Source: a virus
Taxonomy: Duplodnaviria > Heunggongvirae > Uroviricota > Caudoviricetes
IMG/VR virus record: IMGVR_UViG_3300049846_001252
Length of the DNA: 15,150 nt
Strand: one strand, 5' to 3'
Shown here: piece by piece, positions 651 to 11,946 of the stretch
How positions within the stretch are numbered: the stretch's first letter is position 1
How the letters are laid out: each line of letters starts with the position of its first letter
Program-made: the position numbers and the translations under genes
The notes under the pieces: generated by a model
Databases searched by the model: none
The model's input: only the letters and a program-made list of their open reading frames with translations
What the model was told of the DNA's origin: nothing

Positions 651-1475
651 TTATTCCTCAGTCCATTCTATATAACCATCGATACTATTGCCGGTTATAG
701 TCGAAGCGTTTAAATTAATTGCTAATACTTGAGAGGTTCCTCTTAATACTATTGGTTGACCGCCAGAAGGGTCTCCGAATGTAAATCCATAAGTAGGGGA
801 GGCTGAAATATTTCCCCCAGGAGTAGAACTAGGAAATAATGCTCTCTGCGATCTTATATTTCCAACAGACGTTCCTAGTGTTGGATTTGCCGTATAAGTT
901 CGAATTGTCGCTGTGGCAGCCGCGTTTACTGAATCATGAGGAACTGCTGTTCTAGTAGTTGAAGTTCCTCCAGTGTTTGCTGTAGACCTTTTTACAACAT
1001 TCACAATATTGTATGCTGCTGTCGTTTGAGTCGGAGTTATAAACATGCGCAATATTCTTACAGTTTTTGACCCCGATCCAGTAATAGTAAATATGTCGGT
1101 AGCTGACGCTGCCGCAACTAATGCGGTAAAAGATGCAGAATATGTAGCTTTTCTATTTTCGTCATTAATATATAATGAACCGACAGTATCACTCTGAAGG
1201 TCCACTCTTTGACCTGTAGTAAAAGTCGGCACTGTGTCATTATAAACTGATCCAACTTTAATAGGATTACCCGAATCTGTTGCGGCAGATGCGACATTTC
1301 CAGCAACTATTGCTGGATTAGTTGTAGTAGCAATTTCAGTGCCAGAATTATTCCTTAAGTTAATATGCAATCCGCCGTTAGACGTAGATTGAACCGGAGT
1401 CTGTTCTACACCCGTTGAATCGGAGCCTATAATTTTAACCGACTGTGCGGCTTGCGTGTCGTTTAAATCTGCCAT
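651..1475 (-). CDS. putative virion structural protein (tail fibre/whisker/decoration-like)
   Basis: 274 aa, rich in T/S/A/G/N; ATDSGNPIKVGSVYNDTVPTFTTGQRVDLQ and ATDIFTITGSGSKTV segments resemble phage tail-appendage proteins (recalled, not searched); shares a motif with the two upstream genes. Confidence 0.65.
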   Translation of the reverse strand: MADLNDTQAAQSVKIIGSDSTGVEQTPVQSTSNGGLHINLRNNSGTEIATTTNPAIVAGNVASAATDSGNPIKVGSVYNDTVPTFTTGQRVDLQSDTVGSLYINDENRKATYSASFTALVAAASATDIFTITGSGSKTVRILRMFITPTQTTAAYNIVNVVKRSTANTGGTSTTRTAVPHDSVNAAATATIRTYTANPTLGTSVGNIRSQRALFPSSTPGGNISASPTYGFTFGDPSGGQPIVLRGTSQVLAINLNASTITGNSIDGYIEWTEE

Positions 1476-2995: not shown

Positions 2996-3187
2996 ATGAC
3001 AAAGACACAAGACCAGATTAAATCTAAATTAGAGCAATTAAAGCTGGACATAAAGACTTATGAGCATTTTATAGGAAACGTAATGGTTACACCATACATG
3101 CTTAATAACTTTAAATGGCTTATTGAAACAGTAGAAGAATCTTTAGACCGAACAGAAGGGAATAGAAATAGTGAACCGACGCAATAA
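2996..3187 (+). CDS. hypothetical protein
   Basis: 63 aa ORF, first gene of the plus-strand block. Confidence 0.65.
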   Translation: MTKTQDQIKSKLEQLKLDIKTYEHFIGNVMVTPYMLNNFKWLIETVEESLDRTEGNRNSEPTQ

Positions 3188-3383
3188 TAACAACGAAGCA
3201 ATGTTCTATGACGAGTTAGAGAATTACTTAAACGCAAATAACTATGTTATCTATGATTATGATCTAGACGTAGACAGTGCCGGGAACGTGCTCCTTAGTA
3301 TGCAAACAGAAGACGGACGGGACCACGAGTTTCTAAACCCTACAAAGCTAGACCTAATAAAAGTTCTACGTGAATATGAATAA
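3171..3383 (+). CDS. acidic hypothetical protein
   Basis: 70 aa from GTG (alternative ATG at 3201); D/E/N/Y-rich. Confidence 0.65.
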   Translation: MNRRNNNNEAMFYDELENYLNANNYVIYDYDLDVDSAGNVLLSMQTEDGRDHEFLNPTKLDLIKVLREYE

Positions 3384-3430
3384 CTTCCTCGCTTCGCTCG
3401 GTCGTTGGAAAAATTAAAGGATAAAAAATT

Positions 3431-3625
3431 ATGAAAGTACACGTTAAAGGTTACGATCAGCCCCAGGAAGTTTTAGGTTACAGTAGTAAAAGTTTTGCCA
3501 TAAAAGAAGCCGGGACGCTTGGCGAAAAGACAACATGGGTTGTGAAGCCAGTTATGATAATTAAAGAACGGGGCAGCAATAAGATATTGGCCATAGACTT
3601 AGAGGAAGTAGAACGTGAGGGATAA
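3431..3625 (+). CDS. hypothetical protein
   Basis: 64 aa; SD AAAGGA upstream. Confidence 0.7.
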   Translation: MKVHVKGYDQPQEVLGYSSKSFAIKEAGTLGEKTTWVVKPVMIIKERGSNKILAIDLEEVEREG

Positions 3626-3642
3626 CAGCAGTTTGTCGAAAG

Positions 3643-3669
3643 GCGCGGTGCTTTCAGACTTGCTTCAAG
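3643..3669 (+). repeat. 27-bp start-associated repeat, copy 1
   Basis: GCGCGGTGC-TTTCAGACTTGCTTCAAG, 7 nt before ATG 3677. Confidence 0.9.
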
Positions 3670-3676
3670 GAATTAT

Positions 3677-3886
3677 ATGAGAGAAATAAAACTTTATGAT
3701 CTAGAACTACTATGCTCTGATTTTGGAGTAAACTTTAGTATCTCCGCAAGCCAAAATGGTTATTTGATTTATCACTTCGGTCCTGTTTCTTGGATGAAAG
3801 TTATTGGGGATAATTTGAATTGGGAAGATTATGTAAATATTAATCGCAGACTTGCCGCAACGTTTCCAGAGAAGGTATTAGGATGA
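3677..3886 (+). CDS. hypothetical protein
   Basis: 69 aa; SD AAGGA formed by the end of the repeat. Confidence 0.7.
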   Translation: MREIKLYDLELLCSDFGVNFSISASQNGYLIYHFGPVSWMKVIGDNLNWEDYVNINRRLAATFPEKVLG

Positions 3887-4149
3887 AAAAACATGTAGCG
3901 GTACTAGCCGATACTCCACAAGAATTTCACGCATTCTCAAACTCTTTTATGAATACGAAAAACTATTATTCAAAATCATATAATAAATTAGAACTCAATA
4001 ATCAAACGTTCCATATGGTACTTACTCCAGACGATGTTCGCGGGCAAAATCTAGATGGGTTTATTGGTGTGGGTCGATGGTATATACATTGGACGCCTGA
4101 GCGAATACAGAATTATATAATTCCAAATATGGCAAAGAGAACTCCATGA
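3883..4149 (+). CDS. hypothetical protein
   Basis: 88 aa; ATGA overlaps with both neighbours. Confidence 0.75.
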   Translation: MKKHVAVLADTPQEFHAFSNSFMNTKNYYSKSYNKLELNNQTFHMVLTPDDVRGQNLDGFIGVGRWYIHWTPERIQNYIIPNMAKRTP

Positions 4150-4724
4150 ATATAATCAGTATTGATTTGGAAATGAACAAGCCGTCGAACAAAATTATAG
4201 AGGTTGGCTTCTGTATTGTAAATGTTAAGAAGGAACAAATTCTAACACAGCAAAAAATTTATATACATCCAGGAGAAAAGTTGAGTCCGGAGATTGTCGA
4301 ACTCACGGGCATTACTGATGAGCTTTTAGAAAAGGAAGGCGTTGCTTCGTTGGAAGTTGCGTATAACCAAATGGTACATTGGTGTAACAAACTTCAAACA
4401 CACAAGCATCCGGTTCAGTGGGGTACTGACCATTATGAACTAAAAAAACAATTAGGCATTGATTGGGAAAATTATATTTTTTCAAGGCGGGGCATAGATG
4501 TAAAAGCTTTGTACCAAACGTACATGATGTGTGCGCCACAAGGAAAAACTGTTGCCGGATTAAGGAAGGCGTTGCAGAGTTTAGGAGAAGAGTTCCAAGG
4601 AAGACAGCATGACGCAATGGACGATGCGATAAACACTTGGCACGTTATGCGACTACTCCAGCGAAAATTTAAGTTGGCAGATTCTATAACAAAAGCTCAT
4701 GCTGAATACAATAAGAAAGACTAA
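4146..4724 (+). CDS. DEDDh 3'-5' exonuclease (DnaQ-like; ERI-1/KapD-like)
   Basis: ExoI IDLEM, ExoII WGTD and ExoIII GRQHDAMDDAINT motifs all present. Confidence 0.9.
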   Translation: MNIISIDLEMNKPSNKIIEVGFCIVNVKKEQILTQQKIYIHPGEKLSPEIVELTGITDELLEKEGVASLEVAYNQMVHWCNKLQTHKHPVQWGTDHYELKKQLGIDWENYIFSRRGIDVKALYQTYMMCAPQGKTVAGLRKALQSLGEEFQGRQHDAMDDAINTWHVMRLLQRKFKLADSITKAHAEYNKKD

Positions 4725-4725
4725 T

Positions 4726-4920
4726 ATGGCGAAGAAAAAGCTAGTTGGCTATATATGCGGAACCGATGTACTAGAGATTTCGTTAGGAGCTACTGACATA
4801 ATTATATATCCTTCGATTACTGAGTTAAAGAAAAAATCAAAGTGTTGGAAAGAATGCGGTATAGTAGAGATTAAACTATATAATCTTAAAACAAAAGTTA
4901 AGGGAACTTTATGTCTTTAA
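4726..4920 (+). CDS. small basic hypothetical protein
   Basis: ATG at 4726 directly after the exonuclease stop (ORF track starts at 4699); MAKKKLVGYICGTD... Confidence 0.65.
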   Translation: MAKKKLVGYICGTDVLEISLGATDIIIYPSITELKKKSKCWKECGIVEIKLYNLKTKVKGTLCL

Positions 4921-5129
4921 TCAGACGTTCGAACATAGATAGACTTATAAGTAAGCTTGGAATTCAAGGAGACGTAGATTATGAGATTACTAAAAATGAA
5001 AAGGGTAAGCCTGTTTTTGTTCTTTATCGGAATCTTCGGCCTGTTGCCGTTGTCAGCGACCCAACCATCCTTAGAATTAAGAACACAATTCTTAAATTCA
5101 ACGGCAGCCAGGGGGAAACAGATGTTTGA
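4911..5129 (+). CDS. hypothetical protein overlapping the cytochrome c 5' end in another frame
   Basis: 72 aa, SD AAGGGA, coupled to the upstream gene; 149 nt overlap with 4981-5352. Confidence 0.45.
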   Translation: MSLIRRSNIDRLISKLGIQGDVDYEITKNEKGKPVFVLYRNLRPVAVVSDPTILRIKNTILKFNGSQGETDV

Positions 5130-5352
5130 GTATAATTGTATTGGATGCCATAACGTTAATCCCAATAAAGACGGATCTATTGGTCCTGCCTTAGCCGGAA
5201 GTAATAAAGAACTGGTACTTTCCAAAGTTCTAAAAGGAATATATCCTGTTGGATACAAGCCTAAACGTGATACAAAAATTATGCCGGTTATGAACTGGTT
5301 AACTGTTGATGATGTAGAGTCAATTGCTAAATATTTAGAAGGTGTTAAATGA
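4981..5352 (+). CDS. secreted class I c-type cytochrome (single haem)
   Basis: SD AAGGAG 9 nt upstream; signal peptide MRLLKMKRVSLFLFFIGIFGLLPLSA; AARGKQMFEYN-CIGCH (CxxCH); GSIGPAL; candidate distal Met in KIMP; C-terminal helix DDVESIAKYL. Confidence 0.88.
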   Translation: MRLLKMKRVSLFLFFIGIFGLLPLSATQPSLELRTQFLNSTAARGKQMFEYNCIGCHNVNPNKDGSIGPALAGSNKELVLSKVLKGIYPVGYKPKRDTKIMPVMNWLTVDDVESIAKYLEGVK

Positions 5353-5663
5353 GTAAATTTAAAGTCGGGGATAGGGTTATATATAAAAAAGCTCGGGCCA
5401 AAGAAAATCTAACTTACAATTTATTTAATTCTTTCATTCCTTCTAGCGGAAATTTAGACTTAGTCCAGGCTGCGGATTTGGCGGGACATCTAATAGTTTC
5501 TAGATCTCATTTAACAAAAACTCCAATTGTTGGAGAAATTATAAAAGCACACTTCCTTGGTTCAGAAAGTGAAAACTTTAAAGTTGAATTTAGATTTAAC
5601 GGACTTACGCATATAATTAATATTGAAACAAAAGCACTTAAACTAATTAAAGGAGATAAATAA
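5349..5663 (+). CDS. hypothetical protein with N-terminal SH3/KOW-like KFKVGDRV motif
   Basis: 104 aa; ATGA overlap with the cytochrome gene; MSKFKVGDRV start is common in small phage proteins. Confidence 0.7.
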   Translation: MSKFKVGDRVIYKKARAKENLTYNLFNSFIPSSGNLDLVQAADLAGHLIVSRSHLTKTPIVGEIIKAHFLGSESENFKVEFRFNGLTHIINIETKALKLIKGDK

Positions 5664-5834
5664 ATGGAAAAATTAACACAAATGGTTCAAAAGATGGTGC
5701 CTCTAGCAATGATGTTCGGCGGGGGAGTTGCGATGGGAGCATTGGCTACTCAGACGAGTCCGGTCGGCGCTATTATAGCTGTAGGGTTAATCGGTATTGG
5801 TATGTTTTTAAATCATAAGAACAAGGCCCAGTGA
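5664..5834 (+). CDS. 56-aa two-transmembrane protein; absent from ORF track
   Basis: SD AAAGGAG at 5649-5655; MEKLTQMVQKMVPLAMMFGGGVAMGALATQTSPVGAIIAVGLIGIGMFLNHKNKAQ*; fills the gap exactly. Confidence 0.8.
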   Translation: MEKLTQMVQKMVPLAMMFGGGVAMGALATQTSPVGAIIAVGLIGIGMFLNHKNKAQ

Positions 5835-5852
5835 TTTCAGACTTGCTTCAAG
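5826..5852 (+). repeat. 27-bp start-associated repeat, copy 2
   Basis: GCCCAGTGA-TTTCAGACTTGCTTCAAG, 9 nt before ATG 5862; 18-bp core identical to copy 1. Confidence 0.9.
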
Positions 5853-5861
5853 AAATATTGA

Positions 5862-6323
5862 ATGTTTAGATTATATAGTGACCTTTTTAAGGTAGAAGAA
5901 AAATTTGACTCACTAATTGGTTATATAAAAGAAAGAGAAAGTCTTGTGAACAAAACAATACAAACTATTGGCACAATTCCTACAACTAACGTTACATACA
6001 AAGACGGGCGATGGGTTGATTCTGCCGGAGAAGAACTGCGCGGAAAAAGAATTGATGCTGAATTTTTAGCGACTAACGCATTGAATGTAAATGTCCAAAG
6101 TATTCCACAGTATGATCAAAAAATTGCCGATATAGAAAATAGAGTCGCGGCATTGGAAAAATTGGTTGAGGTTGACGAAACCAAAGTAAGTAGTAATGGA
6201 AAAGATTTGGCACTCACTTATTTATTAATTCAATTGAAATTATTAGCAGATGACCCAGTGTCAGGCTACGTTTTTGTTCCTAAAGTAATTGATGCTTATA
6301 ATAAGTATTTGGATGCAAAATGA
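5862..6323 (+). CDS. hypothetical protein with coiled-coil segment
   Basis: 153 aa; YDQKIADIENRVAALEKL heptads. Confidence 0.75.
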   Translation: MFRLYSDLFKVEEKFDSLIGYIKERESLVNKTIQTIGTIPTTNVTYKDGRWVDSAGEELRGKRIDAEFLATNALNVNVQSIPQYDQKIADIENRVAALEKLVEVDETKVSSNGKDLALTYLLIQLKLLADDPVSGYVFVPKVIDAYNKYLDAK

Positions 6324-6565
6324 TACATTGGTATTTAGTAGCCGTAATGACCAGTACAATAAATCCTAAATGGGTATCATATAACTTTCTAATAGATCTT
6401 CCTAAAGATCTTTGTCAATATATTGAAATGCAAGATAAGCTTGCGCCTACGTATATTACGGATGTTGCCGGGTATCAAGCAGTTATGACACTTGAATGTG
6501 CCGAAAATTATGAAAGATATCAGAATGTAATTAATACTAGACGAATATCAGCAGGTTGGTGGTAA
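6320..6565 (+). CDS. hypothetical protein
   Basis: 81 aa; ATGA overlap; hydrophobic N-terminus. Confidence 0.65.
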   Translation: MIHWYLVAVMTSTINPKWVSYNFLIDLPKDLCQYIEMQDKLAPTYITDVAGYQAVMTLECAENYERYQNVINTRRISAGWW

Positions 6566-6567
6566 TA

Positions 6568-7089
6568 ATGAACCTATTAGAAATCTGGCGACCTGTAATT
6601 AATTATAAGAACAATTATGAAATATCCAATATGGGTAGAGTTCGAAACATTAAGTCGGGCCACATACTAACTCCTCAACATTCCAAGAGATTAAATAATT
6701 ATACGACGGTTTGTTTAAGTAAAAATAATAAGACATCGACTTTTGCATTAGGTCGATTAGTTTTAAAGCACTTCCAGCGCGATAAAATTTGTAAGAATTT
6801 TGTGGCGCATCATATCGATTTTAATCACAAAAATAATAAAAATTCCAATCTAGTAAAGACAACTCTATCCGAACATTTTCGATTAGTTAAGAAAAAGAAT
6901 AAGGACATTGGTGTGAGTAAAGTAAATATCCGGGGTCTGGACTATTGGAGAGCAGTACTTACTATTAAAAAGAAAATAAAAACTCTTGGATATTTTCAAA
7001 CTAAACAAGAAGCTAAGGAATGTTTTCAGGAGAACTACTTTAAATATAACGGAATTTGGTTAGATATGGAAGGAAATGTAGTGGCATGA
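6568..7089 (+). CDS. NUMOD4-HNH homing endonuclease with C-terminal AP2-like DNA-binding domain
   Basis: EIWRPVINYKNNYEISNMGRVRN (NUMOD4); AHHIDFNHKNNKNSNL...SEH (HNH); GVS...WRAVLTIKKKIKTLGYFQTKQEA (AP2-like). ATG at 6568 preferred over TTG at 6556. Confidence 0.88.
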   Translation: MNLLEIWRPVINYKNNYEISNMGRVRNIKSGHILTPQHSKRLNNYTTVCLSKNNKTSTFALGRLVLKHFQRDKICKNFVAHHIDFNHKNNKNSNLVKTTLSEHFRLVKKKNKDIGVSKVNIRGLDYWRAVLTIKKKIKTLGYFQTKQEAKECFQENYFKYNGIWLDMEGNVVA

Positions 7090-7090
7090 G

Positions 7091-7117
7091 CCCCCGAGCT
7101 TTCAGAAGTGTACCAAG
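7091..7117 (+). repeat. 27-bp start-associated repeat, copy 3 (degenerate)
   Basis: CCCCCGAGC-TTTCAGAAGTGTACCAAG, 13/18 core identity, 6 nt before ATG 7124. Confidence 0.75.
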
Positions 7118-7123
7118 GAAATT

Positions 7124-7315
7124 ATGCGAGAAAAATTAATTAAACTGTTGCAAGCAAAAATTGGACTATATCCTAGGCTTCAGAAGGCGGTCAAAGCTGG
7201 CGACAGGAAAGAAGCTAAGCAGATTCACGAAACAATGGACGAACTTCAGCATCAAATTGAAGCACTAGAAGATGAATATTTAAAAAAGGTCGAAAATGAA
7301 CTTAAAAAGAAGTAA
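7124..7315 (+). CDS. small helical/coiled-coil protein
   Basis: 63 aa; SD AAGGA. Confidence 0.7.
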   Translation: MREKLIKLLQAKIGLYPRLQKAVKAGDRKEAKQIHETMDELQHQIEALEDEYLKKVENELKKK

Positions 7316-7508
7316 ATTTGAACTAGTAGAACAGGCAAATAACACGCACAGATTATTTGTTCTTGATGGTGGCCTTGCAATTCGCGTAAATCGGGTATTA
7401 AAATCATATCCTTCTGGCGCACTTAAAAGAGACTCTGAGGGCATATTTACTGTACCAGAAAATTCATGGACCAAGATTGCAAAAATCTTAGGCATTAAGA
7501 ATAGTTAA
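7296..7508 (+). CDS. hypothetical protein
   Basis: 70 aa; last gene before the convergent junction. Confidence 0.65.
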   Translation: MNLKRSKFELVEQANNTHRLFVLDGGLAIRVNRVLKSYPSGALKRDSEGIFTVPENSWTKIAKILGIKNS

Positions 7509-7624
7509 ATACCAAAAAATTTTGAAATCGGGGAAAACACGCGTCGAGGACCGGGGGTATACCTGGGTAGCCATCGGACCGAGATCGCGCAATCTAGACC
7601 CCTTAGCGTTCGTTTTAAACGATC

Positions 7625-7924
7625 CTACTTATTCTGACGGGCATGTCTTCTTCTGTCGGTAACTTGCTTAGCAACCCGTCTTAACCTACATGGATACGAA
7701 CAAACTACCTGTTTAGCCTTTGTTGTCAGGAATTCGTTATTACATTCCGGGCATACTTTTAGCTTCTCTTCTACCCCCCTTTTGTCCTTTGTATTTTGTG
7801 AAATACAATTAGGACAAATTTTCCCATGCCATTTCTTTCCAGTTTCGTCGGAATAGATATACTGACTATCCTTCATATTTAGGATTTTTGTTTTATCTTT
7901 GTTGCATACTTTACACAGCGCCAT
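7625..7924 (-). CDS. double zinc-finger protein (CxxC...CxxC and CxxC-x13-CSxxC), probable nucleic-acid binder
   Basis: CKVC, CPNC, CPEC, CSYPC; SD GAGGTG on the minus strand; basic C-terminus. Confidence 0.8.
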   Translation of the reverse strand: MALCKVCNKDKTKILNMKDSQYIYSDETGKKWHGKICPNCISQNTKDKRGVEEKLKVCPECNNEFLTTKAKQVVCSYPCRLRRVAKQVTDRRRHARQNK

Positions 7925-7944
7925 GTTTTCACCTCTGCTTCAAG
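7918..7944 (+). repeat. 27-bp repeat, copy 4 (degenerate, overlaps zinc-finger start and SD)
   Basis: GCGCCATGT-TTTCACCTCTGCTTCAAG, 14/18 core identity. Confidence 0.6.
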
Positions 7945-8021
7945 AACTTGTTAAGACCAATGATAATTTGTATCCACTTATACCCCCATTTTATGGGTAT
8001 AACCAGATATGAATTATAACT

Positions 8022-8048
8022 CCCGCCTGTTTTCAGACTTGCTTCAAG
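8022..8048 (+). repeat. 27-bp repeat, copy 5
   Basis: CCCGCCTGT-TTTCAGACTTGCTTCAAG, 18/18 core identity; intergenic, no adjacent start codon. Confidence 0.9.
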
Positions 8049-8102
8049 ATTTATATACCTTATATTTGTTCCCATGTATACCGACCCCAACTGATCTTCA
8101 TT

Positions 8103-8120
8103 CCCCCCTACCCCCCCCCC
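8103..8120. other. C6-TA-C10 homopolymer tract
   Basis: Read directly; sits at the compositional boundary. Confidence 0.9.
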
Positions 8121-8121
8121 G

Positions 8122-8230
8122 TGGCATGACTCTTGCATATATACAAAAAACGTGCCAACTAAAATCTTGGCATAGATCTTGCATAGAGAGAAGTCCCCTT
8201 GCAAGAATCGTACTAGGCATACTTTTTGCA
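8122..8230 (+). promoter_or_regulatory. three tandem sigma54 (-24/-12)-type promoter motifs
   Basis: TGGCAT-GACTC-TTGCA (8122-8137), TGGCAT-AGATC-TTGCA (8168-8183), AGGCAT-ACTTT-TTGCA (8215-8230); consensus TGGCAC-N5-TTGCW. Weaker minus-strand TGGCAC-GTTTT-TTGTA at 8157-8142. Confidence 0.75.
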
Positions 8231-8274
8231 GGGGAGACAGCAGTATCAGAATGAGACACAATCCGAAATAGTGT

Positions 8275-8303
8275 TTGACTTTATATATTAGTTTGGTTAT
8301 ACT
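8275..8303 (+). promoter_or_regulatory. sigma70-type promoter
   Basis: TTGACT-N17-TATACT upstream of SD GAGGAG and ATG 8332. Confidence 0.8.
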
Positions 8304-8331
8304 ACATTGAAACTAACGAGGAGTGTATAAA

Positions 8332-8520
8332 ATGAAATTCGATTTTAGAGGAAGAGTGTGTCAAATTGAGACATTCAAGACAAAGGGTGTTGTTAAGTAC
8401 AGAGCATTAGTGTTTAGTCATAGACTAGGAATTAAGTCATACTTTAAAACATTGGGCGAGTATGAGACAAGACGCGACGCATTGTTAGGATTGATGAGTC
8501 AAGTTGAGACGGTGGGGTGA
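8332..8520 (+). CDS. small basic hypothetical protein, first gene of the right block
   Basis: ATG 8332 with SD GAGGAG (ORF track uses GTG 8323); 62 aa. Confidence 0.7.
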   Translation: MKFDFRGRVCQIETFKTKGVVKYRALVFSHRLGIKSYFKTLGEYETRRDALLGLMSQVETVG

Positions 8521-8570: not shown

Positions 8571-8597
8571 TTAAGTTTTAAAAATATAAGCCGATGA
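8571..8597 (+). promoter_or_regulatory. sigma28 (FliA)-type promoter 1
   Basis: TTAAGTTT-N11-GCCGATGA vs consensus TAAAGTTT-N11-GCCGATAA; followed by SD AAGGA and ATG 8621. Confidence 0.8.
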
Positions 8598-10826: not shown

Positions 10827-11021
10827 GTGAATAAATATAAATACAAGTTTTCTGAATTATCAGACAAGGCAAAAAAACAAGCGGCGCATTATTATCGACA
10901 AGGATTGTTTGAAACGCGAGACGCGGACGACGTTCCTACAATTCAGGAATGTTTAGAGTATTGCCAAGATTGTGAAAATGATTTACTTTATAACAAAAAC
11001 GGAAAGATTAAAGGAGACTAA
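10827..11021 (+). CDS. hypothetical protein
   Basis: 64 aa; YKFSELSDKAKKQA N-terminus seen in many small phage proteins (recalled). Confidence 0.7.
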   Translation: MNKYKYKFSELSDKAKKQAAHYYRQGLFETRDADDVPTIQECLEYCQDCENDLLYNKNGKIKGD

Positions 11022-11025
11022 GACC

Positions 11026-11946
11026 ATGCAAGAACAAAAAAAGAAGCGAATTAAAAAAGTGTTTGACTCTAGACAGCTTTGTCATGTTTGGGCAAGTGAA
11101 ACGCAAAGCGAAGGTCGAAATAGTGGTAGATCTATGTTTTTTGAGAATAACACAATATACAGCTATGGTCGGCATTATACACTAGGCGTCATTCATACTA
11201 ACAAGCGCGGCGAAAAATTAGGACTTATAAACTCTGAAAGGTACAGCGTCACGACTTCCAAGCATCGAAGTCAAGCCGCCAGTGCCTTGTATGGTCGAAT
11301 GAATGTCTTGCATGTTCCTAGACCTAATGACTTAATGAGTGAGACTAATGAAATATATTTAACAAATGCCGTCGCAAGTTATGTTGAGGAAATTTTTAAC
11401 AGTCGAAAACATTGCAGCGAATACACTAAGGAAGGAATGCTAGACAGTATTAAAGATTTAAACATACTTTTAAAATTTAAAGGTAAAAAGGAGTTTAGCC
11501 TAGATGCTGAGACAATGACTGTCATTGATGAAATATTAGTCGAGAAGATTGAACAAAACAAAGCTAGGGACGCGGCTAGGTCTGAGAAAAGAAAGGCTCA
11601 ATTCGCTGAGTATAAAAGGCAACAGGAATTAAAACGCCAAGACTATCTGTCTAGTGTTATGTTATGGCCTACGTTTCAAAACACTAAGTCAATACCTAGT
11701 CAATATTTCCCGCATGACATGATTCGAGTCAATAAATTAACACTTGAAGTAGAAACGAGTCGAGGCGCGAAAGTTCCTTTAGATGAAGCATTGAAAGCGT
11801 TTCAGGACTTGGAGTCGGGCATTGATGTCATAGGTCGCAGAGTCGGAAGCTTTACAATTGATGAAGTCACACAAGACAAGATCGTAGTCGGGTGCCATGA
11901 GTTAGACAGAGCACAAGTTAGAAAAATTTTAAGCGAGGGGCTATAA
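11026..11946 (+). CDS. conserved phage protein of unknown function (HVWA...FFENNTIYSYGRHY; ETSRGAKVP...VGCH)
   Basis: ATG 11026 with SD AAAGGAG (ORF track starts 10972); N- and C-terminal globular parts joined by a charged helix. Confidence 0.8.
   Translation: MQEQKKKRIKKVFDSRQLCHVWASETQSEGRNSGRSMFFENNTIYSYGRHYTLGVIHTNKRGEKLGLINSERYSVTTSKHRSQAASALYGRMNVLHVPRPNDLMSETNEIYLTNAVASYVEEIFNSRKHCSEYTKEGMLDSIKDLNILLKFKGKKEFSLDAETMTVIDEILVEKIEQNKARDAARSEKRKAQFAEYKRQQELKRQDYLSSVMLWPTFQNTKSIPSQYFPHDMIRVNKLTLEVETSRGAKVPLDEALKAFQDLESGIDVIGRRVGSFTIDEVTQDKIVVGCHELDRAQVRKILSEGL

Follow-up and report, generated by a model that had tools for sequence, protein, structure and literature searches.

Arrays of predicted sigma-54-type sites in control regions of unrelated phages

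Sigma-54 (RpoN) is the one bacterial sigma factor unable to initiate transcription without an ATP-driven activator. Its promoters, including glnAp2, pspA, and nifH, carry a bipartite −24/−12 element in which GG and GC lie 10 bp apart; the consensus given by Barrios et al. in 1999 is reportedly mrNrYTGGCACGrNNNTTGCWNNw. In 2015, Bonocora et al. are said to have mapped non-productive and intragenic sigma-54 sites by ChIP in E. coli and Salmonella. A different precedent comes from phage T7, whose early promoters A1, A2, and A3 are tandem sigma-70 promoters at the entering end that fire without an activator. To our knowledge, sigma-54 is almost unstudied in phage biology. Sigma-54 site arrays in phages are not described in the literature that we searched; the report of a sigma-54-like protein in Pectobacterium phage Q19 rests on a weak HHpred match and is unrelated. 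The sigma-54 consensus is given as TGGCAC-N5-7-TTGCT (PMC12316311).

The window considered here is a stretch of 15,150 nucleotides from an uncultured phage and belongs to a 79,150-bp contig. Its plus strand contains three sigma-54-type sites: site 1, TGGCAT-GACTC-TTGCA, at 8122-8137 (23.0 bits; GG at 8123-8124, GC at 8135-8136; predicted start about 8148); site 2, TGGCAT-AGATC-TTGCA, at 8168-8183 (24.8 bits, the best in the window; GC at 8181-8182; predicted start about 8194); and site 3, AGGCAT-ACTTT-TTGCA, at 8215-8230 (18.3 bits; GC at 8228-8229; predicted start about 8241). Start to start, they are 46 and 47 bp apart. Two weaker motifs occupy the minus strand. The mirror partner of site 1, TGGCAC-GTTTT-TTGTA at 8142-8157 (14.2 bits), has a degenerate −12 element, with GT for GC; that of site 2, TAGTAC-GATTC-TTGCA at 8200-8215 (9.2 bits), has a degenerate −24 element. 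Sites 1, 2, and 3 keep GG and GC exactly 10 bp apart, and each minus-strand copy fails in one element.

Such a cluster is not expected by chance. The pattern WGGCAT-N5-TTGCA has three matches in the window against 0.01 expected, and none of 200 shuffles gave three. The bit scores come from a weight matrix derived from 468 sites in other phages and run over both strands of the window: sites 2, 1, and 3, in that order, are the top three matches; the minus-strand motifs at 8142-8157 and 8200-8215 rank fifth and sixth; and five of the six best matches in 15 kb fall inside 115 bp. For comparison, the 95th percentile of the best match in shuffled sequence is 13.7 bits. A sequence-only reading of this DNA had described three plus-strand motifs spaced by 46-47 bp, all retaining GG and GC, and two weaker motifs on the minus strand; positions, spacing, and relative strength are all confirmed. 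Site 3 is weaker because of the A before GG (position −26), seen in only 2% of sites from comparable arrays. Elsewhere in the window, one further exact site, TGGCAC-TGAAA-TTGCT at 1326-1347 (minus strand), scores 15.3 bits, just above the shuffle percentile; it sits within a 274-aa ORF (651-1475) of the same orientation.

The five sites alternate between right and left. Site 1 and the motif at 8142-8157 converge, with 4 nt between their −12 elements; the latter and site 2 stand back to back, 13 bp apart; and 8200-8215 and site 3 continue the alternation. Alternating convergent (33 bp) and back-to-back (13 bp) pairs account for the 46-47 bp period. The leftward copies are decayed (TTGTA for TTGCA; TAGTAC for TGGCAC), and in the window it is the gene-facing rightward sites that are intact. 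A hairpin or other RNA element was considered and rejected: the N5 spacers of the mirror pairs are not complementary, fold z-scores lie between −1.3 and −1.8, and no Rfam family matches. Since the spacers do not pair, the palindromy of the mirror pairs stems from two protein sites rather than from a hairpin. The minus strand at 8153-8172 does contain a weak terminator-like hairpin with a T run, built from the −24 elements of site 2 and of the partner of site 1.

The array lies in a 407-bp gap between a leftward ORF and a rightward gene block. The leftward ORF (7625..7924, minus strand) encodes a 99-aa Cys-rich, zinc-ribbon-like protein; it diverges from the early block, and it is the sole gene that the leftward sites could serve. 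The block on the right begins with a 62-aa ORF (8332..8520, plus strand; Shine-Dalgarno sequence GAGGAG at 8318-8323) that matches no family. Its ATG at 8332 is co-oriented with sites 1, 2, and 3 and lies 91-184 nt 3′ of their predicted starts. A long run of small genes follows, including those for an ArdC-type zincin and a 324-aa protein belonging to a widespread family of unknown function. Beyond the 99-aa ORF, at 2996-7662, genes again run rightward, among them those for an exonuclease, a cytochrome c, and an HNH endonuclease.

Three further elements adjoin the array. A C tract of 18 nt (six C, T, A, ten C) at 8103..8120 on the plus strand touches site 1, and its opposite strand is capable of forming a G-quadruplex. 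A palindrome of the GTCTCA-N3-TGAGAC type at 8243..8257, operator-like in appearance, is the first of 15 copies that extend to 14230. It covers about +1 to +15 of site 3, so that the predicted start of that site coincides with its beginning, and it lies 5′ of a sigma-70-type promoter, TTGACT-17-TATACT, at 8275..8303. This promoter matches its consensus at 10 of 12 positions and is co-oriented with the array.

Several other features of the region deserve mention in their own right. A sigma-28 (FliA)-type promoter, TAAGTTT-N11-GCCGATGA, at 8572-8596 (plus strand) is a very good consensus match, with a 138-aa ORF (8621) downstream; across the array loci described below, sigma-28-type promoters do not generally co-occur with sigma-54 arrays. 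Positions 7924-8082 hold a composite repeat, TGTTTTCA..CTGCTTCAAGA plus ATTTGT..C..TATACC, in two copies about 100 bp apart, and an inverted repeat with 23-nt arms spans 7963-8017 in the upstream half of the intergenic region. The 324-aa protein (ORF 10972-11946, plus strand) has an 87% relative, P0002; its family gives 295 matches at E ≤ 0.001, has invariant residues that include H36, W38, C306, and H307, and has members in phages of Rhizobium, Brevundimonas, Caulobacter (inside terminal repeats), Achromobacter, and Pseudomonas. The phage-borne ORF at 4981-5352 (plus strand) contains a clear cytochrome c domain (Pfam E 7e-10), and the Atlas clusters closest to it come from Myxococcota, Binatota, and Pseudomonadota, a spread that gave no host assignment. 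Together with a marginal spanin-like match (E 8e-4), this ORF may hint at a Gram-negative host.

How does this locus compare with the described systems? Like glnAp2, pspA, and nifH, it has the bipartite element with its 10-bp GG-GC distance, and the class to which it belongs shows the extended consensus; as with RpoN promoters, the sites lie upstream of co-oriented genes, and those array hosts that can be checked carry rpoN. Unlike RpoN promoters, phage arrays stack three to five sites in 110 bp (up to 14-16 elsewhere) and include convergent, overlapping mirror pairs; no activator gene, conserved upstream activator site, or IHF site was found with the phage array; and a sigma-70 promoter follows it directly, in the early control region of a lytic-type phage. 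The parallel with T7 A1-A3 is positional: three stacked promoters for the host polymerase, predicted ones in the phage array, head an early block with anti-restriction-type proteins. Those of T7 are sigma-70 promoters, whereas the elements in the phage array are of the sigma-54 type, unable to open DNA unaided. Finally, the ChIP-mapped sites of E. coli and Salmonella are likewise consensus sites without an obvious gene or activator to serve; binding is measured there and predicted here, and in those bacteria they occur singly, dispersed over the chromosome, in contrast to dense, oriented arrays at one phage locus.

Close relatives of the window are scarce. Megablast found none among cultured phage records; IMG/VR contains no exact 36-mer match; IMG/VR scans seeded with the 324-aa and 138-aa proteins gave zero matches; and in a metagenome scan with the 324-aa family the relatives were all distant (best identity 42%) and lacked an array. 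The control region itself does have counterparts. Positions 8100-8310 are collinear with the control region of a group of phages of about 80 kb, here called group C (L086, L090, L096, L129, L160; genome G030, 80 kb). The shared order is C tract, right site, left partner, right site, CCCCTTGCAAG block, right site, and the −35 element and spacer of the sigma-70 promoter. In the alignment, the cores TGGCAT and TTGCA do not vary, unlike the N5 spacers. The CCCCTTGCAAG block at the mirror site of 8200-8215 is kept in group C; so is the −24 half of the partner at 8142-8157, which in group C is a perfect site. The −35 element and spacer of the promoter at 8275-8303 are also kept.

The C tracts of the window and group C align with each other, and nothing 5′ of them does; the upstream genes of group C run in the opposite direction, and the repeats at 7924-8082 have no counterpart there. 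Because the alignment ends at this point, the module begins at the C tract, which is itself part of the module; it ends at the sigma-70 promoter ahead of the first early gene, and no enhancer-like site is conserved.

The same design is widespread among unrelated phages. An IMG/VR scan for two copies of GGCAT-N5-TTGCA 25-36 nt apart gave 82 loci, against roughly one by chance (a rough figure that takes the collection as about 60 Gb), and a scan for three copies of GGCAY-N5-TTGCW gave at least 120 matches. The copies are alike in the motif only at 69 of 83 loci from the first set and at 86 of 104 new loci from the second, for a total of at least about 150 loci. Flank identity between copies is 0.28 in the window and has a median of 0.38 over 83 viral loci; in plain tandem repeats it exceeds 0.75. 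Flanks this different suggest that the motif is under selection, rather than that the copies arose by recent duplication. Carrier contigs range in GC content from 0.26 to 0.64, and no neighbouring protein family is shared across the array-bearing groups.

Which protein reads the motif? A logo was made from 475 unique viral-array sites, retrieved with only GGCAY-N5-TTGCW fixed. It shows G at −28 (41%), Y at −27 (81%), T at −26 (93%), C (57%) or T (42%) at −21, G (75%) or A (22%) at −20, R at −19 (74%), T at −17 (62%), A (55%) or T (44%) at −11, and W at −10 (82%). Its free positions thus reproduce the extended sigma-54 consensus reported by Barrios et al. In the window, sites 1 and 2 fit most of the weakly conserved positions; site 3 departs with A at −26 and C at −19.

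A different DNA-binding protein, either phage-encoded, such as the zinc-ribbon neighbour, or a host factor, might instead use the array as a set of operators or iterons. The half-elements TGGCA and TTGCA are similar and lie one helical turn apart, the mirror pairs make operator-like palindromes of 34-36 bp, and the Cys-rich ORF at 7625-7924 has weak tblastn matches beside arrays in two other phages (L111 and L162; E 1e-4). Those zinc-ribbon matches are marginal, however, and overlap HNH-type fingers. Moreover, the information in the logo ends at −28 and −10 without symmetric extension, the free positions recover even the weakly conserved features of sigma-54 promoters, and one motif recurs in phages that span the whole GC range without a common neighbour family, and in integrase-plus-primase elements as well. 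We regard a reader of this other kind as improbable.

Bacterial genomes also bear on this question. About 11 of 119 matches to the triple pattern in bacterial genomes are true arrays; most of the matches were discarded as plain tandem or coding repeats. The five true arrays whose neighbours were scanned adjoin phage-family or integrase-plus-primase genes. The rpoN gene (Sigma54_DBD) was found in 9 of the 11 bins with true arrays; of the remaining two, one is incomplete and one is oversized and probably chimeric. Bins that lack rpoN have only false arrays, which are coding repeats within long ORFs. For the array phages of high GC content, tblastn and blastn gave no host indication.

The phages themselves seem to supply neither the sigma factor nor its activator. 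Of 50 array-bearing viral records, among which 18 reach 90% completeness or more, not one encodes a Sigma54_DBD; a reader would therefore need to come from the host. No clear activator was found in 49 such records; PF00158 matched two, yet it also matches all 14 control genomes, and this candidate was dropped as unspecific. Of the 38 main ORFs called in the window, 20 were scanned against PHROGs and 20 against Pfam, and none of those scanned matched a bEBP or Sigma54_activat (the largest ORF encodes 324 aa). The earlier statement that no AAA+ activator is encoded in the window holds to this extent. The identification of the motif as sigma-54-type in that reading is well supported, given the match to the extended consensus, the −24/−12 cores kept relative to the 80-kb phages, the orientation toward genes, and rpoN in the host bins that can be checked. 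Taking all functional readings together, the motif is very probably of the sigma-54 type and read by a host factor.

What the array does is a separate matter. The earlier reading had proposed activator-dependent promoters, a sponge or anchor for the sigma-54 polymerase, or a switch, roles among which the sequence data do not discriminate; it did not describe the right-left alternation behind the spacing, the C tract as a module component, or the spread of the design among phages. On the interpretation that we favour, the three motifs would be docking sites for the host sigma-54 RNA polymerase holoenzyme, and the intact rightward sites would form a bank of promoters that depend on an enhancer and start near 8148, 8194, and 8241. 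Their transcripts would continue past the sigma-70 promoter and enter the early block of anti-defence-type genes, so that the two kinds of promoter would feed the block in parallel. A host AAA+ activator is proposed to fire the sites because the phage appears to bring none; the stacking of sites may compensate for the missing dedicated enhancer. We give this account a probability of roughly 0.4.

The class as a whole suggests this interpretation in two ways. Where all sites of an array share one orientation, the downstream coding strand agrees with it in 13 of 14 informative cases; these represent only about five lineages. Within 160 bp downstream, 11 of 74 arrays are followed by a strong sigma-70 promoter of the same orientation, compared with 0, 1, and 3 in three control placements. 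The class has a characteristic spacing: tandem sites are 25-29 bp apart, convergent gaps measure 2-5 nt, and back-to-back sites are separated by 10-13 bp, preferences that the window matches with its 4-nt gap and 13 bp. Three points favour promoters: which way the arrays point, how promoter-like their position is, and the intactness of the gene-facing sites in the window. As a separate observation, eight loci (group B: L094, L099, L102, L109, L120, L126, L148, L156) and L141 (11549-11751) have an array 137 bp 5′ of the large terminase gene and co-oriented with it; there the array heads a late structural gene rather than early genes.

Other evidence weighs against active promoters. The scanned ORFs of the window include no activator gene, no enhancer is conserved 5′ of the C tract, and the array region has no IHF site above chance. 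A consensus sigma-70 promoter lies 45 bp downstream and could drive the genes alone. The geometry is unlike that of known bacterial promoters and should hinder serial firing, with −12 elements 2-5 nt apart and tandem sites at 25-29 bp. And in Pseudomonas phage phiK7A1 some sites point against the genes, one of them among four DnaA boxes.

These same features suit an array that binds host sigma-54 holoenzyme in closed complexes that never fire. In one version it would be a trap: with replication of the phage DNA, its sites would titrate sigma-54 and switch off the host responses that depend on it; in another, a protein roadblock, an insulator, or an architectural element where the early block begins. 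Neither an activator nor a conserved enhancer would then be called for, and a separate sigma-70 promoter is available for expression. The sites of ten complete or near-complete genomes fall mostly in one cluster, and the densest clusters reach 14-16 sites in about 1.2 kb. Packing is tight: about 2.5 helical turns centre to centre would put neighbouring enzymes on opposite faces of the DNA. The overlapping mirror pairs are unlike ordinary promoters, and some sites, as in phiK7A1, face no gene. Against this, a pure trap needs no direction, and uniform arrays face their genes in nearly all informative cases; three to five sites on a single entering genome would titrate little before replication; and convergent sites are probably mutually exclusive, which would waste capacity. 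On balance, silent binding of this kind is the leading alternative and seems somewhat unlikely. We would be similarly hesitant about the broader proposal that many phage lineages use compact arrays of consensus boxes to capture the holoenzyme silently, and not as ordinary promoters, either as a DNA decoy against the host sigma-54 programme or as a structure, C tract included, that insulates, protects, or opens the first control region.

The C tract is also relevant to a further possibility, that the locus is a replication origin or a packaging or terminus signal whose boxes serve DNA opening, priming, or terminase recognition. C/G-rich tracts recur near arrays in perhaps six lineages: 14 lie within 150 bp of arrays, in 38 kb, compared with 9 in the other 641 kb. 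Across the class they adjoin the first site on its upstream side, and such a tract resembles cohesive-end sequences. In addition, there is usually one cluster per genome, and some arrays adjoin terminase or primase genes. DnaA boxes are enriched four-fold near arrays in other phages, and one site of phiK7A1 is accompanied by two plus two perfect boxes. In the window, however, DnaA boxes form no cluster at 7900-8350 and in total do not exceed the chance expectation, and no terminase or replication gene adjoins the array. Nor would one expect unrelated phages to retain a single consensus for terminase or initiator sites. Of 62 full contigs, 11 do have an array no more than 60 bp from an end (1.1 expected), an enrichment that is real; the ends look like assembly breaks inside repeats, and a genome terminus was rejected on this ground. 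An origin or packaging role for the array in the window therefore appears highly improbable, and activator-gated promoters remain our preferred interpretation. Among other array loci, L112 has two perfect DnaA boxes between its array sites (6570-6800), followed by three tandem TAGCCTATAG units, and contigs of its group often break at these units.

Related designs exist in cultured phages of Pseudomonas. A mirror-pair region about 81% conserved is found in 127 Pseudomonas phage records, including PAK_P1, PAK_P2, K5, and K8. In PAK_P1 the pair reads TGGCAC-AGTCT-TTGCA, AT, TGCAA-TTAGC-GTGCCA and lies about 100 bp 5′ of a sigma-70-type promoter. This perfect 34-bp pair (NC_015294.2 55588-55621; L409 1518-1553) occupies an unannotated gap in a well-studied therapeutic phage, which also has a second, loose cluster at 67.6-68.9 kb. 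Phage phiK7A1 combines a mirror pair, the single sites that point against genes, and the site between DnaA boxes. The last (MT740307.1 about 95490-95560; L163 3220-3295) is flanked by two direct and two inverted perfect DnaA boxes and is antisense to the neighbouring genes, a layout that looks like an origin.

The PAK_P1-like phages and phiK7A1 thus share the mirror-pair design, and rpoN genetics is available in their hosts, which offers an experimental handle. If the arrays hold up, phages would make systematic use of the host's enhancer-dependent polymerase, whether as a stress-gated bank of early promoters, as a trap, or as an architectural element. Either outcome, if true, would add a layer to what is understood of phage takeover of host transcription.
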